NCBI GenBank assembly: GCA_009995545.1
Contig: JAACPI010000002.1
Coordinates: forward strand, 2,965-66,964
Origin: a bacterium
Lineage (GTDB): Bacteria; Patescibacteriota; WWE3; 2-01-FULL-39-13; JAACPI01
Direction of reading: 5' to 3'
DNA length: 64,000 nt
Below, in pieces: positions 3,044-38,426 of the stretch. The position numbers were made by a program, and so were the translations under genes. Numbering within the stretch: the first letter of the stretch is position 1; every line of letters begins with the position of its first letter. Under the pieces are notes generated by a model that had not been told where the DNA came from, searched no databases, and was given only the letters and a program-made list of their open reading frames with translations.

Positions 3044-4045
3044 TTAAATTGGAAGTAAAACTATAAACTCAGAACCCTTATTTAATCGGGATTTTACAAA
3101 GATCTTCCCACTATGATAATTAACTATAGATTGGCAAATAGACAACCCTAATCCGTACCCCTTTATTACAGATCTGGAATTTTCCACTCTATAAAACCGA
3201 TCGAAAATGTTTGATTTATTATTAGCACTTATGCCCATACCTGTGTCTCTTACTGATATTTTTGCCCAGTTTCGGTCTCTGACCATATCTAAAGTAATAT
3301 TACCCTTTACCGGGGTGTATTTAATAGCATTGTCAGTAAGATTGTAGAAAAGTTGACCTAAGAGCTGTTTATTACCTCTCGTAACTAAATTTTCAGAGGG
3401 TGATTTTAAAGTGACCTTAAGATTTTTTTCTTTAATATAGGGGTTTAATCTGAAAACTATGTTAGAAATTAAATCTGTTAGATCTACATTTTCACTAAAA
3501 TTTATATTGTTTTTTGGATTTTCTCTTGCTAAAAACAAAAGATTTTCAACAAGCGTTGATAAGCGAACCATTTCTTCGTTACTACTTTTTAAAATATTTT
3601 TATACTCTTTAATAGTCCGGGTCTTTTTTAAAGCCACCTCTGTTTCACCTTTTATTATAGCCAAAGGAGTTCGTAATTCATGCGAGGCGTCAGATACAAA
3701 TTGCTTTTGTTTTTCATGGGCAACTTTAATAGGCTCTAAAGACTTTTTAACTAGAAACCATGAAGTGGTAGGTACAACCAATAAAGACACCCCATTGATA
3801 ACTAATAGTAAAGCAAAAAGCTGTTCTAAAGCTATGTCCCCCGCAACAGTAACAACTGTAGTTTTAACATCCTCAAAGTCATCTGTGTCTCCGAGTTGAC
3901 TGTGCCGTTCTTTTACCTGACTAATGTAGTCCTCTCCGAAAGACTTTGTCATCCAAAAATACAAACTAAAACTAAATGCCCAAAATAAACTCAGAAACAG
4001 TAAAGAATAAAGGAGTGTTAGTTTTATTTGTACCTTTGTAAACAT
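3044..4045 (-). CDS. sensor histidine kinase
   Basis: Two N-terminal TM helices, H-box SHELRTPL, HATPase motifs DNAIKYT, DTGMGI, GYGLGLS. Confidence 0.85.
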   Translation of the reverse strand: MFTKVQIKLTLLYSLLFLSLFWAFSFSLYFWMTKSFGEDYISQVKERHSQLGDTDDFEDVKTTVVTVAGDIALEQLFALLLVINGVSLLVVPTTSWFLVKKSLEPIKVAHEKQKQFVSDASHELRTPLAIIKGETEVALKKTRTIKEYKNILKSSNEEMVRLSTLVENLLFLARENPKNNINFSENVDLTDLISNIVFRLNPYIKEKNLKVTLKSPSENLVTRGNKQLLGQLFYNLTDNAIKYTPVKGNITLDMVRDRNWAKISVRDTGMGISANNKSNIFDRFYRVENSRSVIKGYGLGLSICQSIVNYHSGKIFVKSRLNKGSEFIVLLPI

Positions 4046-4046
4046 A

Positions 4047-4724
4047 TTATTTCTTAAGCGAAAATATATATCCAGAACCCCTTTTGGTGTGAATAAGGTC
4101 TTGGGATTTTTCTGTAACTTTTAGCTTTTTTCTAAGGTATTTAACATAGGTTTCCACAATATTTGAAAACCCTTCATAATTATAGTCCCAAACATGTTCT
4201 AAAATATTTGTTTTGGTTAATACAATATCCTGATTTCGCATAAAGTAGTCCAATAAACTGTATTCGCGCGAAGTAAGAACAATCTCCTTTTTGCACCTAA
4301 ATACGGTTTTTGTTGCGGGGTTAAGCAACAGGTCATCAAGGGTTAAAATAACTGGATCTGCTTTTTTATTTCTACGAATTAACGCCCTTATTCTTGCTGA
4401 AAGTTCATCATAAGAAAAAGGCTTAGTAACAAAATCATCTGCCCCTGCATCTAAACCCGAGACTTTGTCGGAAATTGAATCTTTTGCTGTAAGCATTAAA
4501 ATTGGAATCGATGTGTTGGTTTTTCTAATAGATCTACAAACTTCTTCTCCACTTATTTTTGGAATCATTAAATCTAAAATAACCAGGTCATACTCATTTA
4601 TTTCGTATTTTTCTAACGCCTGCTCACCATCGCGGGCAATATCTACAGCGTAGTGTTCTTCAAGTAATCCTCTACGTAGTAAATTTGCTATTTTTTCTTC
4701 GTCCTCAACAATTAGTATTTGCAC
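4047..4724 (-). CDS. OmpR-family response regulator
   Basis: Receiver domain (LIVEDE, DLVILDLMIP, TAKD) plus winged-helix C-terminus (GYIF); abuts the HK gene. Confidence 0.9.
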   Translation of the reverse strand: MQILIVEDEEKIANLLRRGLLEEHYAVDIARDGEQALEKYEINEYDLVILDLMIPKISGEEVCRSIRKTNTSIPILMLTAKDSISDKVSGLDAGADDFVTKPFSYDELSARIRALIRRNKKADPVILTLDDLLLNPATKTVFRCKKEIVLTSREYSLLDYFMRNQDIVLTKTNILEHVWDYNYEGFSNIVETYVKYLRKKLKVTEKSQDLIHTKRGSGYIFSLKK

Positions 4725-4772: not shown

Positions 4773-5678
4773 CTAGTAGCAAAGGATATAAAAGTAGCTA
4801 GTTGTAGATTTAAAAGGTTCTTTAACAATTTCACCAGAATTAGTATTTTGCATAATCTCACAAGAATCGTTAAATGCACCCTTTGTAAAATTTAAAAATA
4901 ATCCCAAGCTCTCGGGAGAATCCACATTATTATTACCCATACTTAAAACAGTCGAGTAATCGTTATTCTGTAGAGCTTTTAAAGTTTGGCTATCGTGTTC
5001 TCTAGCCTGATAAGAATCTAGGTAATGGGAAAAATCTATAGAAAAAACAACAACGGTATTCTCTTTAATATTTATAGAAATCTGCTCATAAAATTTATCT
5101 AAATTTTCTTCGGTAATACCTGGCTTTAAAATAAAAGGTGTAATAGTAGTATTAGGAAGGTAAAAATGAAAATAAGGTATTAATTCTGTAACAGAGTGTT
5201 CCTTTGATAAAACCTGAGTATCCTCTCCAGCCCATTTAATTTCAGTTATCAGGCTTTTAACTAAACCGGGGTCTGTGTTGCTCTGCCCATACATACTCTT
5301 GAAGTTACTAGTAGTTGTAATCACACTGTAATCTCCCATATTCGGGTGATTTGGGCCAATTAAGATTACATTTGTAGGTTTTTGAAGCTGTAACCTTTTA
5401 AAAAAATCTGCGTGGATAAAAAAGGGCAATAAGTGGTGAGGTATAACTGCAGTTTTTATAATACGGGGATTTGAATCGGGTATAAAGTCTAACTCTAAAC
5501 CCTTTTGCAAATAAAAAGGGTTAAAACTGCTTAAATCTATAAAATCTGTATTTGTGGGCTGACCAGATTCAAACGGAACAGTAATTTTTGGATTCCAAGT
5601 AAAATAATTTAAATAATAAAATATTGCAGTGATTATTAAGAGCGATATTACTATAAAAAGTAGTTTTTTAAACCTCAC
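4773..5678 (-). CDS. Memo-like protein (AmmeMemoRadiSam system protein B / MEMO1 family) with N-terminal membrane anchor
   Basis: Blocks matching MEMO1: AVIPHHLLPF (vs IIAPHAGY), VILIGPNHPNMG (vs IFILGPSHH), KEHSVTELIPYF (vs DEHSIEMHLPY), VVFSIDFSHY (vs VVSSDFCHWG); N-terminal TM helix; start overlaps upstream gene by 11 nt. Confidence 0.6.
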   Translation of the reverse strand: MRFKKLLFIVISLLIITAIFYYLNYFTWNPKITVPFESGQPTNTDFIDLSSFNPFYLQKGLELDFIPDSNPRIIKTAVIPHHLLPFFIHADFFKRLQLQKPTNVILIGPNHPNMGDYSVITTTSNFKSMYGQSNTDPGLVKSLITEIKWAGEDTQVLSKEHSVTELIPYFHFYLPNTTITPFILKPGITEENLDKFYEQISINIKENTVVVFSIDFSHYLDSYQAREHDSQTLKALQNNDYSTVLSMGNNNVDSPESLGLFLNFTKGAFNDSCEIMQNTNSGEIVKEPFKSTTSYFYILCY

Positions 5679-8600
5679 TATCCTCGTTTAACTCCGTGTT
5701 GGTTTTTTTACCTTTTAACTTTAAGAATGACTTTGTTTTTTGACTATATTTAGTTCTAAAAAAGATAGCTAAAAGAAATATAAATAGTACCGCAATAGAA
5801 AGAAAAATATATTTCTGGTACTCTTTGGTAAAGTTTTTGGTGATACTTGTTAATGACTTCTTAGATTCTAAATCAATTTTTACCTTTTCAGAAGCTGATC
5901 TTGCGTTTACTTCGGGAGAATACATAACTTCAGCATAGGCTCCAGGTGTTGTAAATTCACCCGCATTTATAACCCTTGCTGTGTAACTAAATACTTCCCT
6001 ATCTAAACTATTTTGGTACTTTATTACGCCGTCTGGAAGATATTCTATATCTCCCAAATTATAATCATTGTTATTGGCCTCGTTTTTTAGTTTGGTGTTA
6101 ACGGGAATCATTCCAGAGGGAAGTTTATCCTCAATAACACTATACCTATAAGGGCTTCCGGAAGTATTAACTTCAATCATCACATTTACTAAATCTCCAA
6201 CGGCTATGTTGTAATCCGGGCCTTTAGTATTAATATATTTTCTAGAAATTGTTATACCGTTAGAGGCCCCCTTATCATTTTGGTCATTCACAAACTCTTT
6301 AAAAAGAACAGTTGAATAGAGTTTACCTTCGCCATTTTTGATTATCTCTACAGTGTTATCTTTATTATTTAAGAGGTTAGAATCTACCTCTATTGTGGAA
6401 ATACTCTGACCTATAGCGGTAACCTTACCATTAGAAATAGAAATGCCGTTGATTGTTACTTCGTAATCAAAAGAGGGATTAACTTCACCAGAATTTTTGG
6501 AGTAACTTATTAAAGCATCAATAACTTTAGCTGTGGCATGGGTGTTAGACCAGTAGTAACCATTATCTTTTAACCCTGCTGTAATATAACGAACAACACT
6601 CTCACTAACTCCTTTAATTTCTTTGGATTGAGTAGAGGAATTTACCAAAGCCTTTAAAGCGGTTGCAGTAGGGATATAGTTAGAGTTGAAACGGTCTTTA
6701 TCACGGTAGTCCCAGTAAATACCATCACCAAGCTCTGATTTTTTACTTAACAATTCGTTTAAACCACTTTTACCGGGGTCTAAAACACCGAGATTGGTAT
6801 TAAGTAAAACTCCTGTTGCTGCAACATCAGCAGGAAGATTTTTAAATAAATCTGCATCTAGGGGTTTAACAGTTAACTTAGAACTAGGGTCAGTAGACAA
6901 TGCGTAAGTAGCAAAGATTCTGTCTATAGTGCTATCTGTATTAATATTATTCGCTTTGGTAAGAAGATAGCTTTTAGCCAAAGAAAGCTTATATTCGTCC
7001 ATTTCGTAACCCAAATTTTTAGACCTAATTAAATATTCGTACACATAAGAGCTTACATAGGTATCAGATTCACCATCTCCCCACCATCGCCAACCTCCAT
7101 CGTATTTTTGTAACTCCATAAGTCGGGAAATACCTTTATTTATAATTTCATCTAGGTTTTTAGCTTGTTTAAGATTAGGGAATATATTTGGATTTTCTGC
7201 AGCAATTATTGCAGGAACTAATCTACTAGTTGTTTGCTCAACACACCCATATGGATAGTAAATAAGATAGTCCATTTGAGAGAGTAAAGATGTGGCTAAA
7301 GAGGGGGCTAAGTTAATCTCTAGTTTAGAAATCTTTGGGTCATAATTTTTGCTTGGGGTGTACTTAAAGCTCGAAGAATCCGAGGAATTAAAGGCATATT
7401 TATTCCAGTATCCAGGGGTAATAGTTGGGATAGAAACCTCAACCTCGTCCGATAAATTACTTGATAGCGCTGAAAATTTAATTTTAGTATCGCCAGCCTC
7501 TTTTGGAACAAGTTTCCAAAAAAGTTGAGATATTTCTTTAGTAGCTAAACTAATTTGTTTACTCAAATTAGATTTTATATCTAAATTTTCAGACTCTAAC
7601 TTTGCCTCAATTTCAAGAGTATTTTCAGAAAAGTTTTGTATTAAAGAAGACAAAATTATACTATCCCCTACCCTTAAAATATTTGGCAATATAGGTCTTA
7701 CAACTAGGTCTTTAGATACCGTAATATCTGTTACATTCTGCCCGACGGCAGTGTCTTTAGAGGCTGCTACAGCTAAGATACTCCAGGTGGTTAAGTTGTC
7801 TGGAACCTTAAAGTTTATGTTAGCATTGCCATTTGAATCAGTAATCACGCTAGGGTTCCAGTAAGCAACATCTTTGAACTCAGATCTAAGGTTTCCTTTG
7901 TCATTATGAACCCATACGCCTCCTGCTATATAAGTATGCTCATTTTCAATTTCTAAATTGTAGACCTCAAAACTTCCTTTTATGTACTCTACAGAGCCTA
8001 CGGTTATTTGTTGGCCGTTGATACCTACTAAATGATCACCAATTTCAGTATCTGCAGCTTCTTGCCAGGTATCATTTAAATTTAAAATATGCTCAGGAGT
8101 AACTTTTAAACTCCCATTTATAATAAGGTACCCAGATACTGTGTGCTTAAAAGTTTTTAGTACCTTAGCCGTTACCATGTCTCCATTTTCATCACTACTT
8201 AAGGTACTTACAAAATCCCCAACTTTAATATCTTGAATATTTTTTGTTTTACCATTTTGCATAAGTACGTCTGTGTCACCAGCAAAACACCCTCCTCCTC
8301 TTTCTGCAGTATTTACAACTATGCCCTCTAGAGAGTGAGAATAAGTAGTATTGTTATATCTTTGATACCAAAAGGTATCGAAAATATTCCCCATTCTACT
8401 AGTAGACAACTCAAACAAGGCTTTATCCACAACCCAAACTGTTACCTCAGATGATTTATTTGCACCTGTTAGATCTTTTGTATTAATTTTTAATTCAACG
8501 TTTTCACCGGGTCCATACTTAGTAGAAGAAGGTAACAAAGAAACATTAAGTTTTTTTGACTCAGAAGAAATATCTAAAGAGTCGCTGCTAATAATGTATT

Positions 8601-10824
8601 GATTTAAAGAAAAGGTCCCCACTTTAAAATAAATATTTGGGACATAAGAATCTAAAGCTTTCTCGGTAATAGTGTTAATGCCGGTATTTAAAGAAACCAC
8701 TTTATATTTATGCGTGTTAGCTCTTTCAACACTAAATAAAACATCTCGAGAGGTATCCGAATTAACTAAAAATTTTATTGTATCTCCAGGTGCGTAGAAA
8801 TCTTTCTCTGCTTTTATGTTAAGGGTGCTATCTAGATCAGAGGAACCAACATATTCTTTATCTGTAGCCCAAGCATAAAATTTATTTTGTAAGATGTTAC
8901 CTTTTTTGTCCGTGCCGCTAATCAGTATTTCGTAAGATCCTGATTTTTGCGGTGTAAAGCTTAGTGTTACCTCCCCCTCTTCATTGGTAGTTCCTACAGA
9001 CTCCAGAATCTTATCTTCTCTTTTTTCGTAATTAGGATACTTAGAATCTTTTGAATAAATTTTTTCCCACCAAATTCTTTTAACCTCGTAAGTTAAATTT
9101 ATGTTGTCTAAATTAACCAAATCAGTTGTATTGTTTTTAAGAATAATATCTAAGTCGACTGGTTTACCTACTAAAGAAGAGTAAGAGTAGTTTTGCTGTA
9201 AAATACTAAATTCTCCGTTGTAAACATACGCGTTAACTGCGTCTTTAACTGGATTACCGCTTTGATCAGTGTAAGACACTTCGATATTATAAATTTGGTT
9301 TCTTAAAGGGTCTTTGTTCTTTACAGCTTTAAAAGATAGTATACCAACCCCATTATTATCTAACTCGAGTTCACCGGTTTTTATTGAATTGCCTACGCCG
9401 TAATTAGGATACCAATGTTGCTCTGTGGATAAAAAGTTACTTAAATAAGTATAAGTATAAGTATCTGCAGAACTTATAGAATAATTTACCTTTGAATTGG
9501 ATAAAGGTTGGCCCGAAAAATAACTACCCTGAATTGAAAAAGCCATATCTTCACCTACTGTATAGGTACTTTTATCGGCCTTTATGCTAATTGTGTACTC
9601 TGGTTTACGGTAATGTTCAACATCAAAGTAAACTAGAGTTTCATAATTTTTTTCATTTGTAGGATCTCTAACAATTAGATAATGAGATTTATTAGTACTA
9701 GTCTTTTCGGGAAGAATAAACTCACCGGAAACACCCCCAAACTCATCTGGAACCTTAGTTTGAGAGTACAAAGGATCTCCCTCCCAAGAGTCTCTAATTT
9801 CAACTATTAAAGGAGCTGTATTAATAGTGTACTGAGAATCATTGTCTTGTCTTGTAAAAACTTTAAAATTTATTTTATCCCCGGGTTTGTAAATAGGTTT
9901 GTCAGTAAAACCAAAGTATTTAAGACTAGGTTTAAATTTGGTAAATCTATCATAGTCGTAAGAGTTCAAATAAACTAAATTAAGAGGGATAAGTGCCACT
10001 TGATCCTTGTAGTAAGCCAGAGCGATATCAGCTTTGGAGTCTAGTTCAGTTTCTATTAAGCCTTGAGATGAAAACTTTTTTTCTGAAATCTTGTCTTTTT
10101 TATCTTTAAGGCTGTATATGTCTAAGTTTCCTTCGTTAATACTCTTACCCGATAAAAAACTCTGTCCCCAAAATACAAAACTATCTTTATTTTGGGTACT
10201 GTAGACCCCAAAGTTAGAAACTATAACGTAAGCTTTAGAACTTTGATCGCCTAAACTAATGTCAATGTAAAATATTCCGGCTTCGTTTATAGGAAGGTCT
10301 ACATTAGCCTCACCGGAGTCATATTCCCCTAAAGGAACATCAAAGTCTAAAGAACCTAAATAGCTGTAACTCTCGTCATTTAATTCGGGCTGTTTGTTAG
10401 TTTGTTCGGTTGAGCCATTATCATTTGTTTTATATTGTAGGTATTTTAAAACTTCCGCTATATCCGTTTTATAAAGAGCAATTTTACCGTTTTTAGCTGT
10501 TTTATAGGCACCAATACGTAAGTTAATTTTATCAACAGAAGAATATGAAATAACCCCACCCATACTGTAGGCATAATCACCCCCAGAAATATGTATATAA
10601 GAAAAACTATTAGACGCAGATGTGCCTAAAACAGTTTTTTCTGAATCATTATTTTGTACAAAAGAATCTTCTTCAATGGAAATATTTTTTGGCGGTACAG
10701 GTTTGTGAATCAATCCAAAATTAAACAGAAAATAATAAGCTAAAGGTACAACTGACAAAAAAATAGCTATTAAATACTTTGAAAACTTTAGAATATTAAA
10801 CTTCGTTTTAGAAGATTTAGGCAT
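5668..10824 (-). CDS. alpha-2-macroglobulin family protein (1718 aa), membrane-anchored at both ends, with embedded Hint domain
   Basis: Size and repetitive beta-rich architecture; thioester-site motif YYPYGCVEQTT (CxEQ, nt 7233-7244) as in bacterial A2M (CLEQ) and eukaryotic GCGEQ; N-terminal and C-terminal TM helices. Confidence 0.75.
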   Translation of the reverse strand: MPKSSKTKFNILKFSKYLIAIFLSVVPLAYYFLFNFGLIHKPVPPKNISIEEDSFVQNNDSEKTVLGTSASNSFSYIHISGGDYAYSMGGVISYSSVDKINLRIGAYKTAKNGKIALYKTDIAEVLKYLQYKTNDNGSTEQTNKQPELNDESYSYLGSLDFDVPLGEYDSGEANVDLPINEAGIFYIDISLGDQSSKAYVIVSNFGVYSTQNKDSFVFWGQSFLSGKSINEGNLDIYSLKDKKDKISEKKFSSQGLIETELDSKADIALAYYKDQVALIPLNLVYLNSYDYDRFTKFKPSLKYFGFTDKPIYKPGDKINFKVFTRQDNDSQYTINTAPLIVEIRDSWEGDPLYSQTKVPDEFGGVSGEFILPEKTSTNKSHYLIVRDPTNEKNYETLVYFDVEHYRKPEYTISIKADKSTYTVGEDMAFSIQGSYFSGQPLSNSKVNYSISSADTYTYTYLSNFLSTEQHWYPNYGVGNSIKTGELELDNNGVGILSFKAVKNKDPLRNQIYNIEVSYTDQSGNPVKDAVNAYVYNGEFSILQQNYSYSSLVGKPVDLDIILKNNTTDLVNLDNINLTYEVKRIWWEKIYSKDSKYPNYEKREDKILESVGTTNEEGEVTLSFTPQKSGSYEILISGTDKKGNILQNKFYAWATDKEYVGSSDLDSTLNIKAEKDFYAPGDTIKFLVNSDTSRDVLFSVERANTHKYKVVSLNTGINTITEKALDSYVPNIYFKVGTFSLNQYIISSDSLDISSESKKLNVSLLPSSTKYGPGENVELKINTKDLTGANKSSEVTVWVVDKALFELSTSRMGNIFDTFWYQRYNNTTYSHSLEGIVVNTAERGGGCFAGDTDVLMQNGKTKNIQDIKVGDFVSTLSSDENGDMVTAKVLKTFKHTVSGYLIINGSLKVTPEHILNLNDTWQEAADTEIGDHLVGINGQQITVGSVEYIKGSFEVYNLEIENEHTYIAGGVWVHNDKGNLRSEFKDVAYWNPSVITDSNGNANINFKVPDNLTTWSILAVAASKDTAVGQNVTDITVSKDLVVRPILPNILRVGDSIILSSLIQNFSENTLEIEAKLESENLDIKSNLSKQISLATKEISQLFWKLVPKEAGDTKIKFSALSSNLSDEVEVSIPTITPGYWNKYAFNSSDSSSFKYTPSKNYDPKISKLEINLAPSLATSLLSQMDYLIYYPYGCVEQTTSRLVPAIIAAENPNIFPNLKQAKNLDEIINKGISRLMELQKYDGGWRWWGDGESDTYVSSYVYEYLIRSKNLGYEMDEYKLSLAKSYLLTKANNINTDSTIDRIFATYALSTDPSSKLTVKPLDADLFKNLPADVAATGVLLNTNLGVLDPGKSGLNELLSKKSELGDGIYWDYRDKDRFNSNYIPTATALKALVNSSTQSKEIKGVSESVVRYITAGLKDNGYYWSNTHATAKVIDALISYSKNSGEVNPSFDYEVTINGISISNGKVTAIGQSISTIEVDSNLLNNKDNTVEIIKNGEGKLYSTVLFKEFVNDQNDKGASNGITISRKYINTKGPDYNIAVGDLVNVMIEVNTSGSPYRYSVIEDKLPSGMIPVNTKLKNEANNNDYNLGDIEYLPDGVIKYQNSLDREVFSYTARVINAGEFTTPGAYAEVMYSPEVNARSASEKVKIDLESKKSLTSITKNFTKEYQKYIFLSIAVLFIFLLAIFFRTKYSQKTKSFLKLKGKKTNTELNEDSEV
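7904..8289 (-). other. Hint (Hedgehog/intein) domain, about 129 aa, embedded in the A2M-like ORF; mini-intein blocks A, B, F, G present but +1 residue is Asp
   Basis: GGG-CFAGDTDVLMQNG (block A, GCF as in Hedgehog), TPEH (block B TxxH), EVYNLEIENEHTYIAGG (block F), VWVHN (block G) followed by DKG. Confidence 0.7.
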
Positions 10825-10941: not shown

Positions 10942-11337
10942 ATGGAAGCAACAAAGCCCTCCCCAAAAGTTTCAAAGCAAGTTCCAGTCAATGATAATAG
11001 TACTTTAATAGCAATTTTAACCTTACTATTTATCAACCCCTTTGGAGTTTTTTATATGTGGTGGAAAGCCTCTTGGCACGTAGGGGTTAAAATTGTTGTT
11101 ACTATTTTTTCGGTACTATCTTGGTTAATCATGATACCTTTAGTTGTTGGGGTAATCCTACTAGCTATAAATCCAGAAGGACGAAATGCAGTTAACACAG
11201 GGATTGCTTGTGGAAAACAATGCCAGAATGCTACAGACATTGAAGCCTGTACACAAGAGTGCCTACAGCAAAATTTAGACATGGAGTTTGTAAACGATGC
11301 AGATGGTGCACAAGAAATACCAAAAATGGAGAAATAA
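10942..11337 (+). CDS. small membrane protein with Cys-rich C-terminal tail
   Basis: Two TM helices; C-terminal CGKQCQNATDIEACTQEC; no family assigned. Confidence 0.45.
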   Translation: MEATKPSPKVSKQVPVNDNSTLIAILTLLFINPFGVFYMWWKASWHVGVKIVVTIFSVLSWLIMIPLVVGVILLAINPEGRNAVNTGIACGKQCQNATDIEACTQECLQQNLDMEFVNDADGAQEIPKMEK

Positions 11338-11363
11338 AATTAGATAACATAATTTAACTTTAA

Positions 11364-11399
11364 CCCCGGGTAAGTAATTGGACCTGGGGTTTTTGTTTT
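11364..11399 (+). terminator. candidate rho-independent terminator
   Basis: ccccggg ... cctgggg stem (one G-U pair, 12-nt loop) followed by TTTTTGTTTT. Confidence 0.4.
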
Positions 11400-11426
11400 A
11401 AGTAAGCATAGGCTATTATTATATAA

Positions 11427-11801
11427 ATGAGTATTCCTAAAAGTCAGTATTCTGTAATATTCTTTTCACTCTTCGTCTTTGTAGGATCTTTTTTTTACTT
11501 TAATAAGAACGACAAACAAAGCACAAATGTTAAAGGAACCACAAAATCAAGAGAGATTCAAACTCCTGTAGATGCTCTAGTAATTAATCAAGACAGTACC
11601 GAAAATTCAGAACAAATTGTATACACCACAAGATTTACTAAAGATCAGCTAGACCAGTATTATAAAGAGCTATCTATTTTAGAGGGTTGGAAACAAATTA
11701 GCCCAGAAAACTATACCTTAGAGGGGAAAAACATTTACATTAAGGTTGAAAAAGAGTCGGAAGAAAAAAACCTAGTGACTTTAGAGTACGAGAACAACTA
11801 A
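11427..11801 (+). CDS. hypothetical membrane-anchored protein
   Basis: N-terminal TM helix, no motif recognised. Confidence 0.4.
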   Translation: MSIPKSQYSVIFFSLFVFVGSFFYFNKNDKQSTNVKGTTKSREIQTPVDALVINQDSTENSEQIVYTTRFTKDQLDQYYKELSILEGWKQISPENYTLEGKNIYIKVEKESEEKNLVTLEYENN

Positions 11802-11810
11802 CCCATTAAT

Positions 11811-13592
11811 TTAAATCCCTCGTCGGTACAAGGCTGCCCAAGGCACATAGTAGCTTTTAAACTCATCGTCGTATAAAACCTTATTATCTTTAGTTACTTT
11901 GCGCGTAAAAGAGGCGCTGGCTCCGTATGAGGGCCACTCTTCTTGAATAATAGTACCTTTTGGTAAGGAAGGATCATCAACATAAACTGGTGCTGGAGGG
12001 GGAACTTGACTTAAGATTTTAGGCTCACTCAAGTCAACAGTTCTACCATCTTTTGTTCCGTAAATTTTAACTTCGAGTTTTTTAGCCTGAATATCTAAAA
12101 CAGTGTATACCAATATATAATTTTCCATATCATTTTTGAAAACGAAATCTACAGAAGGTTGGTAGATTGTGGCATCCAAACCAATAGGAGACTTTTCTTC
12201 GTAATAGCTGACTCTGTAGGCATGCGCCGTTCTTTTAACAATAGGTAAACCGGCATAAAGAGCTGCCCTAAATACAGTTGTGCTAACCTGACAAACCCCG
12301 CCCCCGGTACCTAAAACAGTTCTGCCCTTGCTAATAATGTAACCCGTGTTAAAACCATGTTCTACATCAATTGGACCAACAGCATCATTAAAACTAAAGT
12401 TTTCTCCAGGTGCAACTAAGGTTCCTTTAACTTTTTGGCTGGCAGTGGCAATGTTGCTAATTCTATTAGAACTACTGTGAGAAAAATAAGAAACTCCCTC
12501 TGCGATTAGTTCTTTTATGCCATAATCGTTGGCATTTTGTTCTGGCCGTGTCTCCGAAATGTCTAAAGCAATAGAATTATTAACATCTTTTAAAGCGTTA
12601 AAATCATAGCTTTTAATATACTGGGATAAGTCGTTTTCGAGTGTAGACCTGTTGATTGATAAACCTAGTACAGGAGGACTAAACACAATATCCCCATTTT
12701 CTTTTAGCTCAAACTGGGTACTTTTTGCTTCAACATCAACCTTAGACCCTACAATATTTATAAAAGATAAAATACCATATTTATTTGGGGTAATTAGCAA
12801 CGTGCCTTGGGGGTTTTTACTAAAATCTAATAAAGATAATTTTTCTGAAGAGTTTGCAGAAACCTCAATATTCTTATATGTAAAAAACAAGGGGGACTGT
12901 AAGTAATACTCGACTCCTTGAGTAAAGGGTTCTAGGTCGCTGCCAAATATCGTAGGAACATACTCACTGGTAACTAACTGGTGTTCAAACTTGTAAGTTA
13001 AAAAACCTTTTTCAATATCTTTTTTTACACTTAGTAAATCCAGTAGTAAACCCGGCTGGGCTTCTTGGATTATCAATTCTTCTTGATCATTTAATATAAA
13101 ACTTGCATTACTTACCTGAGGATATTTTTGCGCCGAAAAGTTAGCTAACAAAGAGTTTAATTTAGATTCTTCGTAGTGGTAATCTAAAGAAATATTTTCT
13201 ACAGGTTTAAAAAAACCAATGGCGTAAGTTAACGGGGATAAAAAATTCTGCCTACCAGTGCTAAATACTTTCGTATAAGTACTAGTTAAATCATATTTAA
13301 AGTCTAAATCACTTAAACTTATTTCGTAAACACTCTTCTCTCCGTCTGCTGTAGAAGAAAAATAAAGCTTAATAGTATCCGGGTGATTAAAATATAAGTT
13401 TTTTAGTTTTTCGTGTGCCTCTTTTTTAGTCAGTCCACCAAAATACTGATCATTAACATAAACACCAGGAAGTATACGGGTTGAAAAATAAAAATTGTAG
13501 GAGGCTACAGCAAAAAAACAAATGCTAAAAAAATACAAAGCCCCGCTTATAGGAGGTAAGGAGAACCTTACCTTAGGTAGTTGGTTTATCAT
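11811..13592 (-). CDS. VanW-family protein (YoaR-like)
   Basis: N-terminal TM; C-terminal VanW-type motif GGGVCQVSTTVFRAALYAGLPIV. Confidence 0.65.
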   Translation of the reverse strand: MINQLPKVRFSLPPISGALYFFSICFFAVASYNFYFSTRILPGVYVNDQYFGGLTKKEAHEKLKNLYFNHPDTIKLYFSSTADGEKSVYEISLSDLDFKYDLTSTYTKVFSTGRQNFLSPLTYAIGFFKPVENISLDYHYEESKLNSLLANFSAQKYPQVSNASFILNDQEELIIQEAQPGLLLDLLSVKKDIEKGFLTYKFEHQLVTSEYVPTIFGSDLEPFTQGVEYYLQSPLFFTYKNIEVSANSSEKLSLLDFSKNPQGTLLITPNKYGILSFINIVGSKVDVEAKSTQFELKENGDIVFSPPVLGLSINRSTLENDLSQYIKSYDFNALKDVNNSIALDISETRPEQNANDYGIKELIAEGVSYFSHSSSNRISNIATASQKVKGTLVAPGENFSFNDAVGPIDVEHGFNTGYIISKGRTVLGTGGGVCQVSTTVFRAALYAGLPIVKRTAHAYRVSYYEEKSPIGLDATIYQPSVDFVFKNDMENYILVYTVLDIQAKKLEVKIYGTKDGRTVDLSEPKILSQVPPPAPVYVDDPSLPKGTIIQEEWPSYGASASFTRKVTKDNKVLYDDEFKSYYVPWAALYRRGI

Positions 13593-21722: not shown

Positions 21723-21799
21723 TGGTCGGGGTGACAGGACTTGAACCTGCGACCTCTCGCACCCCATGCGAACGCGCTAGCCAACTGCGCTACACCCCG
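21723..21799 (-). tRNA. tRNA-Pro (anticodon GGG), CCA encoded
   Basis: Manual fold: acceptor CGGGGUG/CACCCCG, D-stem GCGC, anticodon stem UUCGC/GCGAG with loop AUGGGGU, T-arm GCAGG-UUCAAGU-CCUGU, ACCA 3' end. Confidence 0.85.
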
Positions 21800-21902: not shown

Positions 21903-22118
21903 ATGGATCCGGAGTTAAGAGCCCGACTAGATGCACAAGATCAAGCTATAGCAGCAATTTACGCCTCTGCAGAAAAATCACGAAAATATTTCTTATGGAC
22001 ACTAATTATTACAATCGTGACTATAGTCTTGCCAATTATTGGAATGTTGTTTGCAATACCCATGTTAATGAACGCCTATAGCTCAGCTCTTGGGGGTGCG
22101 GGAATGCTAGGTCTCTAA
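21903..22118 (+). CDS. small hypothetical membrane protein
   Basis: 71-aa ORF with one long TM segment; weak. Confidence 0.3.
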   Translation: MDPELRARLDAQDQAIAAIYASAEKSRKYFLWTLIITIVTIVLPIIGMLFAIPMLMNAYSSALGGAGMLGL

Positions 22119-22763
22119 TAATAGATTTTCTATTTGATCGTAACTAAAACCCCTAGAAACCAAATATCTAGTTATACTGCTTTTTCTTTTATACTCATTT
22201 TCTATTTTTGCGCATTTTTTAGTAGCTTTTAAATATTCTTTATTTAAAGCTTTCGAAAAATCTACTTGCTCTAAAGACGCTTCTGAAATCTCTTTGTTTA
22301 TACCCTTTTGATATAAATCTTGTTTAATAAACATAGGACCCTTTCCTTGGGTAACTCGTTGTTCAACTAGCCACTTTGCAAAAGCTTCATCATTTAAATA
22401 GTCGTATTTTTTTAAAAACTCTAAAGTTGAATCAATTATTTGGGAATATAATTTTGGAATATTTAAGCTAGATACTTTAAGTGATTTTGATAAACGCTTG
22501 GATAATACTTCGTTTATTTTATTAAATACTTCTTTTTCACTTCGAGGTCTAAAACCTAAGTAATTAAGGGCTTTCTCTTTTAAATACTCCTTATTCTCAT
22601 CAAGAACCACTAATTCTATTTGTTCGGGTACAAAATTAGACCCTTCAGTAAGTTTGTATTTACCTAAAACGTAATCACTAACCGAAAAGGCAAAGTCGTT
22701 ATCTAAAAATATAGAAAATCGACCTCCTTTTTTAGTAGGCTCTACTTTACTTATTAAAGGCAT
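22107..22763 (-). CDS. recX: recombination regulator RecX
   Basis: Immediately downstream of recA on same strand; repeated helical L..KG(I/F) motifs typical of RecX. Confidence 0.6.
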   Translation of the reverse strand: MPLISKVEPTKKGGRFSIFLDNDFAFSVSDYVLGKYKLTEGSNFVPEQIELVVLDENKEYLKEKALNYLGFRPRSEKEVFNKINEVLSKRLSKSLKVSSLNIPKLYSQIIDSTLEFLKKYDYLNDEAFAKWLVEQRVTQGKGPMFIKQDLYQKGINKEISEASLEQVDFSKALNKEYLKATKKCAKIENEYKRKSSITRYLVSRGFSYDQIENLLLET

Positions 22764-22769
22764 TATTTT

Positions 22770-23855
22770 TTACGAATCAGAATCTTCATGTGTACTAGAA
22801 GTTCCTATTTCTAGCATTTCATCATCTCCCTTTTTTGCTTTATTATAGATTTCTTTTTCTATTTCTTCGGCAACTTTAGGGTTTTCTTTTAAGTATATTT
22901 TTGCGGCATCCCTACCTTGTGAAATATTGTCACCTTTATAGCTGTACCAAGCACCCGCTTTTTGCAAAACTTCTAGCTCCACACCTACATCTACCAAATT
23001 ACCCATTTTACTAATCCCCTCGGCAAACATAATGTCAAACTCTGCAACCTTAAAAGGTGGCGCAACTTTATTTTTAACAACTTTAACCTTTACTCTGTTT
23101 CCTGTAATTTCGTCTCCTTCAGTAATACTCCCTGTTCTTCTTATATCCAAACGAACACTAGCGTAAAATCTTAATGCCCTACCTCCTGGAGTTGTTTCGG
23201 GATTACCAAACATAACACCAATTTTTTCCCTTATTTGATTGGTAAAAATAACAGTAGTGTTAGTTTTATTTATAGCTCCTGTAATTTTTCTAAGTGCCTG
23301 GCTCATTAACCTGGCCTGTAAACCCATATGACTATCTCCCATTTCTCCTTCGATTTCTGCTCGAGGAGTTAGAGCTGCAACAGAATCTATAACTACTAAA
23401 TCCACAGCCCCACTTCTAATTAGTTTTTCGGCAATTTCTAAACCCTGCTCACCTGTGTCTGGTTGAGAAACATATAAGTCATCTATATTTACCCCTATTG
23501 TTTTAGCATAAATGGGGTCTAAAGCATGCTCCGCATCTATAAAGGCACAGATACCACCTTTTCTTTGAGACTCGGCAACTATGTGTAAAACTAAAGTGGT
23601 TTTACCCGAGGACTCAGGACCAAAAATTTCTATAACTCTGCCTTTAGGAACACCTCCTATGCCTAAAGCTAAATCTAAAGCTATAGCTCCAGTTTTAATA
23701 ACTTCCGCATTGCTAAATCTAGGGGATTCTCCAAGTTTTATCACAGCACCAGTTCCAAATTCTTTTTCAATTAAAGATATAGCGCTTTTTAACGCAGCTG
23801 CTTTTCCGGAATTCTGTGCTTCTTTTTTGCTGTCTTCTATTGGTTTTTTAGGCAT
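22770..23855 (-). CDS. recA: recombinase RecA
   Basis: Walker [21 protein letters not shown]1/L2 loop regions; full-length conservation. Confidence 0.97.
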
Positions 23856-24182
23856 GTTATTTTAGTAAATTTATAAATTATCGTCTGTGTTAGTTCTTAT
23901 ATTACTATAACATAAAAAACTTTTCTGTTCGTATTTTATTCGGAACACTTGTTTGCTGATTTTAAACCCAGTGTGTAGTATAATCCCCCACAGAAAGATG
24001 TTCATTATTAACTTTAAAGAGCACTAATATAAAGCAAAACAATGGAAAATATATTTACAAGAATAAGTTTCAATTATCTTAATTACTTAATCTCCAATAT
24101 ATCTTAGAAGCCAGAGGTCTAGGTACCTTTTGTCTTTTATTTAATCCAAAACTTTTCTTTACATTGGTGTGTTTTACAAACT

Positions 24183-25679
24183 ATGTTAGAAGTTTTATTA
24201 ACTTTTTTAGTAACTACAGTAGGTGTTGGTGGGAGTGTGTTTGTTTACGCTAATCGAAAACAGAAAGAGGAGTCTTCAAAAAAAGAGGTTGAGGCGGAAA
24301 ACAAAGCAAAAAAAATAGTACTAGATGCAGAAGAGAAGGCTCTTCACATTAAAAGAAAGTCCGAAGAGGATGAGATACGAGTTAAAAAAGAATTAGCTGA
24401 AAAAGAAAAAAGAGCCGAAATCGAGAAAGAGAAGGCGAATCTGGTTAAAGAAGAATACGAAAAGAAAGAAAAGCTCATTGAAGGTGAAAGAGAAAGCCTT
24501 AATCAAAGAACAAAACAGCTAGAAGAGAAAATTAATGAGCAAATAAGTAAGCTAGATGGAATTGCAGGACTAACCAAAGAAGAAGCGAAAAAGATAATAC
24601 TAGAAAATACCGAAAAATCCCTATCCCAACAAATTGGAAAAAGAATTGCAGAAGCAGAAGAAAAAGTAAAAACCGATGTTGATGACAAAGCCCGAGAACT
24701 TTTGGTAGATGCTATGCAGCACGGAGCTAACGACTACGTTGCAGAATACACTGTAAGTACCGTTCATTTACCTTCAAAAGATGTAAAAGGTAGGATTATA
24801 GGTAAAGAAGGACGAAATATAAGATCTTTTGAAGAACAAACAGGGGTAACATTAGATTTAGACGAATCCCCAGAAGCCGTTAGAATAAGCTGCTTTGACT
24901 CAGTAAGAAGAGAAATAGCGAGAGTATCTTTAGAAAGACTTATTAAAGACGGTAGAGTACACCCCGCTAGAATCGAGGAAGTTGTAGCTAAAACCAGAGA
25001 AGAAATCGATAAAATAATGTATAAAGAGGGAGAAAAGCTAAGCCATAAAGTTGGTATATACAACCTACCCCCAGATTTAATTCAAAATTTAGGCAAATAC
25101 AAATATAGGTATTCTTATGGACAGAATATGATTGAGCATACTTTAGAAGAAACCAAAATTGGTACTAAGATTGCTCATGAAATTGGAGCGGATGTAACTG
25201 TAACAAAATTAGCTTGTTTACTTCATGATATTGGTAAGATATTTACCGACAAAGAGGGTAGCCATATAGAGCTGGCCGCTGAGTATTTAGCAAAATTTGA
25301 TATACCTAAAAAAGTTATCGAAGCTGTTGAGGATCACCACAAAGACCACCCAAGATCTGTTGAAGGTATGATAGTACAAATAGCTGACACAATTAGTGGA
25401 GGTAGACCTGGTGCTAGGTATGAAGACTACGAAGTATATGCTAAAAGGATGACCGGATTAGAGGAGGCGGCATTAAGCTTTGCTGGAGTCGATAAAGCAT
25501 ATGCGATATCTGCAGGTAGAGAAGTTAGAGTTATGCTTAAAGCCGACGAGGTAGACGATGCTTCTGCAGTCAAGTTAGCCGACGATATAGCAACTAAAAT
25601 TCAAAAAGAGAATACATACCCAGGAACAGTAAAAGTAACTGTTATAAGGGAAATGAGAGCCATAGGAGTTGCAAAATAG
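24183..25679 (+). CDS. rny: ribonuclease Y
   Basis: N-terminal TM, long coiled-coil, KH domain (GRIIGKEGRNIR), HD domain (LHDIGK...HH). Confidence 0.9.
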   Translation: MLEVLLTFLVTTVGVGGSVFVYANRKQKEESSKKEVEAENKAKKIVLDAEEKALHIKRKSEEDEIRVKKELAEKEKRAEIEKEKANLVKEEYEKKEKLIEGERESLNQRTKQLEEKINEQISKLDGIAGLTKEEAKKIILENTEKSLSQQIGKRIAEAEEKVKTDVDDKARELLVDAMQHGANDYVAEYTVSTVHLPSKDVKGRIIGKEGRNIRSFEEQTGVTLDLDESPEAVRISCFDSVRREIARVSLERLIKDGRVHPARIEEVVAKTREEIDKIMYKEGEKLSHKVGIYNLPPDLIQNLGKYKYRYSYGQNMIEHTLEETKIGTKIAHEIGADVTVTKLACLLHDIGKIFTDKEGSHIELAAEYLAKFDIPKKVIEAVEDHHKDHPRSVEGMIVQIADTISGGRPGARYEDYEVYAKRMTGLEEAALSFAGVDKAYAISAGREVRVMLKADEVDDASAVKLADDIATKIQKENTYPGTVKVTVIREMRAIGVAK

Positions 25680-36513: not shown

Positions 36514-36587
36514 TGGCTGGGGTATAAGGACTCGAACCCTAACTACTGGGACCAGAACCCAGCGTCCTACCATTAGACGATACCCCA
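36514..36587 (-). tRNA. tRNA-Gln (anticodon CUG) with U1-A72 pair, G73, CCA encoded
   Basis: Manual fold: UGGGGUA/UACCCCA acceptor, anticodon stem CUGGG/CCCAG loop UUCUGGU, T-arm AGGGUUCGAGUCCU. Confidence 0.85.
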
Positions 36588-37942: not shown

Positions 37943-37988
37943 TAAGTAATTATATATAAAATAGATAGTTTATGCTATAATTAAACTA

Positions 37989-38322
37989 TAGGATGTAGTT
38001 CTGATGGCTCCTTAAATTTATTTAAGGAGAGGAAAGTCCGGACTGCAAAGAGCAGGGATAGGGTTGCAAAACCCTTAGCAGAAATGTTAGGTGTTGTTTA
38101 CTCGAAAGGGTAAACAAACAGAAGGTGAGTTAACACCCTCTGAGAGCCGCAGAGACGAGCCTTTGGCTAAGCTTTGGCAACAAGGTATGTCGAAGGGTGA
38201 AACGTGGCAATCCCACCCGCAGCAACTCAAATTAGAACCTATGGTTCGGCTCGAACGGGTTCGTGGTAGAGGCAAAGATAAATCATCAGTTAAAACAGAA
38301 TCCGGCTTATTCACATCCTATA
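37989..38322 (+). ncRNA. rnpB: RNase P RNA (bacterial type A)
   Basis: Conserved blocks GAGAGGAAAGUCCGGAC, AGCAGGGAUAGG, GGGUGAAACG, ACAGAAUCCGGCUUA; P1 pairing aggatgtag/cacatcct; P3 hairpin ctcctta...taaggag. Confidence 0.8.
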
Positions 38323-38426
38323 CATTTAAACTTCACTCACCTTAAATAAGGTGAGTACTCTTATCTATTTCTTATCTTCGCCGTGTAGTATGTTAAAAGA
38401 TAACTAAATAATTTATTAAACTAAAA

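Follow-up and report, generated by a model that had tools for sequence, protein, structure and literature searches.

A bacterial intein-like Hint domain at the end of the bait region in membrane-tethered alpha-2-macroglobulins of Patescibacteria

To our knowledge, every known member of the alpha-2-macroglobulin (A2M)/complement superfamily is fired by an external protease that cuts the bait or ANA region. What, then, could a domain with the residues of a self-processing protein element be doing inside the bait region of such a protein? The question is raised by a gene of a WWE3 bacterium (Patescibacteria, or Candidate Phyla Radiation [CPR]; assembly GCA_009995545.1), found in a 64,000-nucleotide stretch of contig JAACPI010000002.1 (positions 2,965 to 66,964), hereafter the window. 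The gene lies on the minus strand at window positions 5668-10824 and encodes a membrane-anchored, thioester-type A2M of 1718 residues into which a Hint domain is inserted; the features of this protein described below are likewise given as window positions on the minus strand. Read from its sequence, the arrangement would imply that the A2M superfamily includes a trigger that needs no protease, or a step of ester transfer. If true, this would be the first built-in trigger, or the first built-in ligation step, in the superfamily, and it would provide a clear physiological job for bacterial intein-like (BIL) domains, whose roles remain largely unknown.

The Hint domain and its place in the A2M

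The reading frame is intact in both the open reading frame list and the translation, and the Pfam matches to the 1718-residue protein, every one of which exceeds its gathering score, follow the order of a bacterial A2M. The series comprises MG2 (residues 303-377, positions 9694-9918; PF01835, E 1.1e-12), the bait-region domain A2M_BRD (residues 668-806, positions 8407-8823; PF07703, E 7.9e-19), the A2M domain (residues 987-1074, positions 7603-7866; PF00207, E 7.8e-20), the N-terminal part of the thioester domain (TED_complement; residues 1181-1290, positions 6955-7284; PF07678, E 2e-9), and the C-terminal MG domain bMG10 (residues 1523-1638, positions 5911-6258; PF17973, E 1.2e-15). The bait lies upstream of the alpha'NT-like segment, and a CxEQ thioester site is present within the motif YYPYGCVEQT, where CVEQ occupies residues 1194-1197 (positions 7234-7245), running from Cys1194 (7243-7245) to Gln1197. 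YPYGC.EQ is kept in the first 58 of the 60 homologs listed. The nearest solved structures to the whole protein are those of Escherichia coli YfhM/ECAM and Salmonella A2M (SaA2M; phmmer, E 4e-26).

A hydropathy scan places transmembrane (TM) anchors near both ends, at residues 17-39 (positions 10708-10776) and at residues 1672-1690 (positions 5755-5811), the latter followed by a basic tail. With a TM helix at each end, both halves of the protein would remain on the cell after a cut. Only two cysteines are present in the 1718 residues, Cys846 (Cys1 of the Hint domain) and Cys1194 (the thioester), and because these are the sole cysteines the protein has no lipobox. The same scan finds the C-terminal TM helix in Hint-bearing proteins and in their close Hint-less relatives, and finds it missing from distant A2Ms; the idea that this helix is a Hint-linked device for holding the cleaved half was rejected, since its presence does not correlate with that of the Hint domain.

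The protein resembles ECAM/YfhM and SaA2M in its domain order, its CxEQ motif, the presence of bMG10, a length of about 1650-1720 residues and a bait located in the MG8-equivalent domain. Proteobacterial ECAM-type genes typically encode an N-terminal lipoprotein anchor and are paired with pbpC. The present protein differs in carrying a Hint domain in the bait, in being held by a TM helix at each end and not by an N-terminal lipid anchor, in having a Memo-like gene and not pbpC as its neighbour, and in belonging to CPR bacteria, which are assumed to lack an outer membrane and periplasm.

The inserted domain extends from Cys846 to Asn974 (129 residues, 14.2 kDa; positions 7903-8289), and its assignment as a Hint domain resembling type-A BILs comes from Pfam, from a match to structure 2LWY, from an AlphaFold2 model and from Foldseek. 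Over residues 840-975 Pfam returns Vint (32.9 bits), PT-HINT (PF07591; 31.3 bits against a cutoff of 27.7, profile positions 9-137) and Hint (30.4 bits), all beyond their gathering scores. The translation contains the start GGG/CFAGDTDVLMQNG (a slash marks a Hint junction here and below) with Cys1 at positions 8287-8289, block B as TPEH (residues 909-912), block F as VYNL (residues 954-957), the further mini-intein block EVYNLEIENEHTYIAGG, and the C-terminal end VWVHN (residues 970-974), whose His-Asn is at positions 7903-7908. At the C-terminal junction, the +1 residue Asp975 offers no nucleophile, and the alignment of homologs shows the +2 residue, Lys976, to be near-invariant (positions 7897-7902).

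The AlphaFold2 model of residues 800-1030 has pLDDT values of 88-98 across the Hint domain, which appears as a compact, independent domain on glycine linkers. The best Foldseek match in the PDB is BIL2 of the Tetrahymena BUBL locus (6Y75/6TMM, E 9e-12, 21-22% identity), and the BIL of C. thermocellum, 2LWY, is matched with a target TM-score of 0.84, a root-mean-square deviation of 1.9 Å and 28% identity. BIL2 and 2LWY together make up the top five fold matches; mini-inteins and Hedgehog (1AT0, 6TYY) come next, and the margin over mini-inteins is modest. 2LWY is also the top PDB match by sequence (E 6e-6), and Asn at position 4 of block F is common to the two domains.

Judged from sequence, the domain thus appears to have each testable property of a type-A BIL, and it lacks both the +1 nucleophile of inteins and the adduct-recognition region of Hedgehog proteins. 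Type-A BILs (reportedly the domains of Amitai et al. 2003 and Dassa et al. 2004) share with it the Hint fold, Cys1, TxxH, His-Asn, the absence of a +1 nucleophile and a location in a variable region of a secreted or surface protein, which here is a variable linker site in the ectodomain between the two TM helices. The differences from type-A BILs are that the host is an A2M and the site its bait, that the flanking Gly-Gly and x-Lys are near-invariant, and that the domain forms a CPR-specific subfamily, also found in tandem arrays. With BUBL BIL2 the domain shares an acyl donor that ends in Gly-Gly before Cys1 and an available acceptor Lys, but BIL2 is eukaryotic, cytosolic and flanked by ubiquitin-like sequences, whereas the present domain is extracytoplasmic and lies between A2M bait and alpha'NT flanks. 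The invariant Gly/Cys-Phe junction, the fold and the chemistry of the N-S acyl shift are those of the Hedgehog Hog domain; unlike Hog, the domain has no sterol-recognition region, ends in His-Asn and is followed directly after HN974 by the resumption of its host. In polymorphic toxins, a PT-HINT domain directly precedes the C-terminal toxin domain that it releases; here Pfam detects A2M, TED and bMG10, and no toxin domain, downstream of the Hint.

These results bear on an earlier note, made from the letters and translations of this DNA, which had called the protein an A2M from its thioester signature and size and the insert a mini-intein-like Hint domain from its sequence blocks. Pfam recovers both the A2M domains (MG2, A2M_BRD, A2M, TED and bMG10, with the thioester) and the Hint families, and the AlphaFold2 model with Foldseek gives the insert a BIL/intein fold. 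The Hedgehog-like junction named in the note (G845-C846-F847) and the want of a +1 Cys, Ser or Thr also hold, both here and in relatives (41/41 aligned homologs for the junction and about 148/150 for the +1 residue), and the suggested likeness to BILs agrees with 2LWY and BIL2 as the closest solved relatives. Two coordinates move by a single base: the thioester motif, put at 7233-7244, is present but its CVEQ lies at 7234-7245, and the insert, which does have 129 residues and all the quoted motifs, covers 7903-8289 and not 7904-8289.

The same note had located the insert roughly where A2Ms carry their bait, about 220 residues upstream of the thioester. The thioester Cys is indeed 220 residues past Asn974. 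In Pfam the order is A2M_BRD, Hint, A2M. The site was mapped by removing the Hint domain and aligning the remainder to the ECAM structures (chain-to-protein numbering offset 39). In this alignment RYNNTTYSHSLEGIVVNTAERGGG/DKGNLRSEF is paired with ECAM RYGADIYDIYGQVIEGQGRLAALRFGG/DGDELKRGG, and the insertion point in ECAM numbering is F947-G948-G949/D950, within the bait-region domain. The stretch RYNNTTYSHSLEGIVVNTAERGGG (residues 822-845, positions 8290-8361), which ends in the invariant Gly-Gly before the Hint, matches ECAM R923-G949 (R923-L942 plus AALRFGG), and residues 975-991 match the ECAM post-bait segment. In ECAM the bait R923-L942 is disordered and elastase-sensitive, and R956-N963 rebinds the C-terminal MG domain after cleavage (PMC4498604); by alignment, the Hint site falls between these two segments. 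The insert therefore does lie in the bait domain, but it does not replace the bait, a possibility that the note had raised: the Hint is inserted in a poly-Gly linker at the C-terminal end of a bait that is itself still present.

Immediately downstream is the alpha'NT-like segment GNLRSEFKDVAYWNP (residues 977-991, positions 7852-7896), defined by alignment with C3b and ECAM, in which R.xF.DTAYWNP is kept in all relatives. Cleavage at the C-terminal side of the Hint would make this segment the new N-terminal region. The alpha' chain of C3b, from about its residue 16, aligns to R980, which puts the Hint site within about 10-15 residues of the C3a/C3b junction, the position of ANA. The ANA domain of C3, C4 and C5 is likewise a folded insert at the equivalent place, between the MG6 halves and directly before alpha'NT, and its removal leads to a conformational change and exposure of the thioester (PMC9352918). 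ANA is helical, however, and is removed by an external convertase, whereas the Hint domain could remove itself. Taken together, we conclude with near certainty that the protein is a thioester-containing bacterial A2M of Patescibacteria/CPR, membrane-tethered at both ends, with a Hint domain immediately upstream of an alpha'NT-like segment.

Conservation and history of the family

The arrangement is not confined to one genome. A search with the whole protein turned up the same Hint domain in about 45 proteins, which are 32-38% identical, and about nine close relatives that lack it. All 41 aligned Hint-bearing homologs have Cys1, Phe2, the block B T..H, the terminal His-Asn, Gly at -1 and Lys at +2, and 40 of the 41 have Gly at -2. 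The +1 residue is Gln in 26, Asp in eight, Glu in five, and Asn and Gly in one each, and is never Cys, Ser or Thr. Mean pairwise identity among these homologs is 47% in the Hint domain versus 38% in the rest of the protein.

A profile of the Hint domain with both flanks was then searched against 1.84 billion cluster representatives (50% identity clusters), giving 840 matches at E <= 1e-30. The entire profile is matched, inside proteins of 1600-1800 residues, by about 125 of the best 150 clusters. Among about 150 proteins, the Hint starts with CF in 141 and TxxH is present in 146; Lys stands at +2 in 144/151 and at +1 in three more. The +1 residue over this set is mostly Gln (63), Asp (47), Glu (14) or Gly (14), and Ser in only two (P0174 and P0180, VWVHN/SKG), which on this residue could be competent for canonical splicing. 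The family signature is GG/CF...TxxH...HN/x-K, and its +2 Lys is missing from the Hint-less relatives. In 78 of 129 Hint-bearing members, as in the protein studied here, no cysteine is present other than Hint Cys1 and that of the thioester. No homing endonuclease was found in any member, and the length of the Hint is uniform at 127-129 residues.

A scan of GTDB species genomes found the arrangement in about 22 species, mostly Patescibacteria, with record titles naming Microgenomates, WWE3, Daviesbacteria, Roizmanbacteria, Moranbacteria and 'Patescibacteria group'. The titles of seven records (L004, L005, L011, L012, L018, L019 and L022) include Gammaproteobacteria, Nevskiaceae and Bathyarchaeia, and are probably automated mislabels. 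Public annotation of these proteins reads only 'alpha-2-macroglobulin family protein', and among 8 million papers searched none combined an A2M with a Hint domain, intein or BIL, nor did a search on Hint domains in CPR bacteria yield a description. The view of the earlier note that the arrangement was undescribed accordingly stands as far as papers go, but it is no singular oddity, since a large conserved family is already in the sequence databases. Patescibacteria have tiny genomes and live attached to other cells, so a widespread, conserved surface protein of about 1700 residues likely matters for that lifestyle, and the arrangement singles out such a conserved protein on the surface of CPR bacteria.

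The Hint occupies the same poly-Gly site in several host types: the clade of about 1700 residues, one of about 2200 residues, the P0228 group and P0253, and lineages in which CxEQ has been lost (L014, L015, P0161, P0189 and P0085). The second of these is an A2M type of about 2100-2300 residues (L018, L019, L021 and L022) with the sequence GSKGGSGGG/CF...VHN/QKG, and its neighbours in the host tree are Hint-less A2Ms of Peribacteria/Chloroflexi type. Close Hint-less relatives have AE(M/R)GGG-GG(G/D)..R or plain GGGGG, of variable length, at the insertion site, and poly-Gly is frequent there in many other bacterial A2Ms. K-GGGGG stands at the bait position in many Hint-less proteins of Peribacteria, Chloroflexota and others (L024-L026, L040, L042, L043, L049, L051, L052, L063, L071, L079 and L082), from which it follows that the poly-Gly linker is older than the Hint and wider in distribution than the Hint-bearing family.

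A2M-resident Hints form one clade, apart from the Hints of other proteins, and the subclades within it track host groups. The host lineages that bear them are polyphyletic in the host tree. Neither the Hint-bearing set nor the Hint-less set was monophyletic in any of 100 bootstrap trees, where single placements had at most 34% support, and the correlation between Hint and host distances (Spearman 0.11-0.41) is weaker than that between host and host (0.34-0.61). A single gain followed by strict vertical descent is unsupported for these reasons. The pattern fits either an old insertion with repeated loss or a Hint that has occasionally moved from one A2M gene to another at the poly-Gly site.

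Members of this Hint subfamily are found outside A2Ms too, in proteins with 2-11 closely related copies back to back joined by HN/K-GG(G)/CF (P0121, P0122, P0233, P0238, P0230, P0151, P0227 and others). Some of these tandem-Hint proteins also have Tim44-like, pilin N-methyl, PKD or Laminin_G domains. The junctions of the tandem arrays indicate that the Gly-Gly and Lys flanks belong to the Hint module and not to the A2M. Such arrays are BIL-like and unlike the behaviour of inteins. Because the poly-Gly linker is not conserved, even imprecise deletion of the Hint would be tolerated, and its retention there, together with its uniform length, its host-like base composition (GC 0.344 in the Hint, 0.336 in the remainder of the gene) and the absence of an endonuclease, suggests that it is neither a recent nor a selfish invader. 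Recent horizontal acquisition, which was considered separately, has no support in that composition.

Possible functions of the inserted domain

In the reading that we tentatively favour, to which we give somewhat less than an even chance, the Hint domain would cleave the bait chain by itself and so act as a built-in trigger of the trap; here we infer catalysis, its timing and its effect on A2M conformation. After export and folding, an N-S acyl shift at Gly845-Cys846 would produce a backbone thioester, and cyclisation of Asn974 would cut the Asn974-Asp975 bond. As no Cys, Ser or Thr follows the Hint, the branched intermediate of canonical splicing could not form, and the main outcome would be a cut at either junction or at both, freeing the 14-kDa domain. 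This protease-free break of the bait would be expected to let the alpha'NT plug retract and the molecule collapse, exposing the TED thioester (Cys1194-Gln1197), while the halves, of about 95 and 83 kDa, would be held on the cell by TM1 and TM2. The trigger may be slow or conditional, depending on a nucleophile, redox state, metal or pH, and the upstream protease bait would still be in place beside it.

BILs have no +1 nucleophile and give mostly N- and C-terminal cleavage products (PMC4031507, PMC7664689). Across the A2M superfamily a discontinuity of the bait chain is the essential trigger, and the alpha'NT plug withdraws from its channel after cleavage (PMC9352918); when the ECAM bait is cleaved, the C-terminal MG domain is rebound and the TED freed (PMC4498604). 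The invariance of Cys1, Phe2, T..H, His-Asn and the -1 Gly in all 41 aligned homologs, combined with a +1 residue that is never Cys, Ser or Thr among them, an identity in the Hint that is above that of the host, and the many family members whose sole cysteines are Cys1 and the thioester Cys, points to selection on catalysis.

Several observations weigh against self-cleavage as a trigger. If the protein fired itself constitutively, its thioester would be lost to hydrolysis, and a biological rationale would require slow or conditional cleavage. A parasitic element that needs to be excised would be expected to conserve its catalytic residues likewise, and the near-invariant Lys after His-Asn and the Gly-Gly before Cys1 seem to suit ligation at least equally well. 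Hint-less relatives are scattered among the Hint-bearing ones in the host tree, indicating that the domain is dispensable for the core function of the protein. Finally, a Hint with intact Cys1, TxxH and His-Asn is kept in A2Ms that have no CxEQ (L014, L015, P0161, P0189, P0192, P0215, P0252, P0253 and P0085), and firing of the thioester therefore cannot be the sole role of the Hint.

The flanking residues bring in the main alternative, although we consider it unlikely on balance: the Hint could remove itself and re-ligate its flanks, as a type-A BIL or in the manner of the BUBL locus, with the Gly845 acyl group captured by the alpha-amine of residue 975 or, as an isopeptide, by the epsilon-amine of Lys976. 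The bait would then be continuous and the A2M native and triggered by proteases, and the Hint would be a benign, inherited self-removing element or an aid to maturation or folding. Type-A BILs with His-Asn can also splice through attack of the freed alpha-amine on the thioester (PMC4031507), and the top fold match, BIL2 of the T. thermophila BUBL locus, makes isopeptides with Lys epsilon-amines after a ubiquitin-like Gly-Gly (PMC8616854). The signature GG/C...HN/x-K, its Lys being present in 144/151 and missing where there is no Hint, fits such a reaction, and the product, ...GGG-[x]K-GGG..., would look like the poly-Gly linker of Hint-less homologs. The patchy distribution of the Hint across the host tree and the two members with +1 Ser, which could splice canonically, are further points in its favour. 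On the other hand, tested BILs give more cleavage than spliced product, and a pure parasite in a length-tolerant Gly linker should vanish fast, whereas the Hint outconserves its host and no member has a homing endonuclease. The tandem Hints, moreover, with only K-G-G between them, have no meaningful exteins to join. Whichever reaction it performs, the GG/C...HN/xK module might be of use as a tool in protein engineering.

In another reading, which we regard as speculative and rather improbable, the proteins of this family would be protease-independent, self-firing thioester proteins with two ester warheads, the Hint thioester at Gly845 and the TED thioester at Cys1194. The single-turnover Hint would serve as a timer or chemical sensor that either breaks the bait, in a complement-like 'tick-over' that needs no convertase, or transfers the N-terminal half to a lysine. 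If so, epibiotic ultrasmall CPR cells could attach covalently to, or defend against, a host cell surface.

In a related proposal, for which we see still fainter prospects, the Gly845-Cys846 thioester would be resolved by an external nucleophile, leaving the N-terminal MG1-MG8 fragment covalently attached to a target, in addition to the classical TED thioester; candidates are a Lys of an approaching protease, an amine or hydroxyl of the host surface, or a lipid or peptidoglycan amine, in a Hedgehog-like or BUBL-like transfer. In Hedgehog the thioester at G/CF is resolved by an external nucleophile, and the same junction is invariant here, with Hedgehog Hints among the fold matches. BIL2 joins its N-extein to lysines of other proteins (PMC8616854), an incoming protease would dock in the bait, to which the site belongs, and retention of the Hint where CxEQ has been lost would be sensible if the Hint provides a reactive ester. 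However, the Hint is minimal at 129 residues and has no adduct-recognition region, its conserved terminal His-Asn implies a second, C-terminal cleavage for which Hedgehog-type domains have no need, and the sequence suggests no target.

That the Hint is catalytically silent, and acts as a structural plug, a binding module or an enlarged proteolytic bait, is very unlikely. A folded 14-kDa domain beside the alpha'NT plug could affect how readily the bait is reached, and the compact, independent domain on Gly linkers in the AlphaFold2 model would suit such a role, but Cys1, TxxH and His-Asn, which are all the residues needed for cleavage, are invariant in highly diverged members, and Cys1 is kept in otherwise Cys-free proteins. 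An ordinary class-1 splicing intein, suggested by the Hint fold, Cys1, TxxH, the terminal His-Asn and the strong fold matches to mini-inteins, is almost certainly wrong and was rejected on the +1 Asp975, which stands in an unambiguous reading frame and is echoed by Gln, Asp, Glu or Gly at +1 in nearly all relatives, while the site is a variable linker and not a conserved active site, and the RecA encoded in the window has no intein, RecA proteins being classic hosts of them.

Neighbouring genes

The gene directly downstream of the A2M (positions 4773-5678, minus strand) overlaps its stop codon by 11 nucleotides and encodes a Memo/AmmeMemoSam_B-like protein (Pfam PF01875; TIGR04336, 84 bits) with an N-terminal TM helix. 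A Memo-like gene holds this position in 13 related loci, both Hint-bearing and Hint-less (L004-L008, L011, L013, L014, L016, L017, L023, L028 and the Hint-less L074), and is thus a conserved operon partner of the CPR A2M clade. No AmmeA or radical-SAM partner was found near the Memo-like gene in the window, and neither pbpC nor another penicillin-binding protein gene is among the neighbours of the A2M, which are the Memo-like gene, a two-component system and VanW. The two-component system, an OmpR-type response regulator and a histidine kinase, lies further downstream (positions 3044-4724, minus strand); a regulator and kinase stand beside the A2M in only two or three related loci, all Hint-less. 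Upstream of the A2M are two small open reading frames without a family match (positions 10942-11801, plus strand) and a VanW/PG_binding_4 protein (positions 11811-13592, minus strand), and of these upstream genes only the VanW-like one recurs beside the A2M, in four related loci (L019, L027, L081 and L083).

Elsewhere in the window, recX and recA on the minus strand face the RNase Y gene rny on the plus strand (positions 22107-25679). The RecA is closest to that of candidate division WWE3, at 78% identity, and contains no intein; the contig derives from a JGI metagenome. A turn in GC skew at about 24 kb was considered as a replication origin and rejected, since it matches the divergent recA-recX/rny junction and not a dnaA origin. 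The window also has two tRNA genes on the minus strand (positions 21726-21799 and 36517-36587) and a bacterial class-A RNase P RNA on the plus strand (positions 37988-38325, 112 bits).

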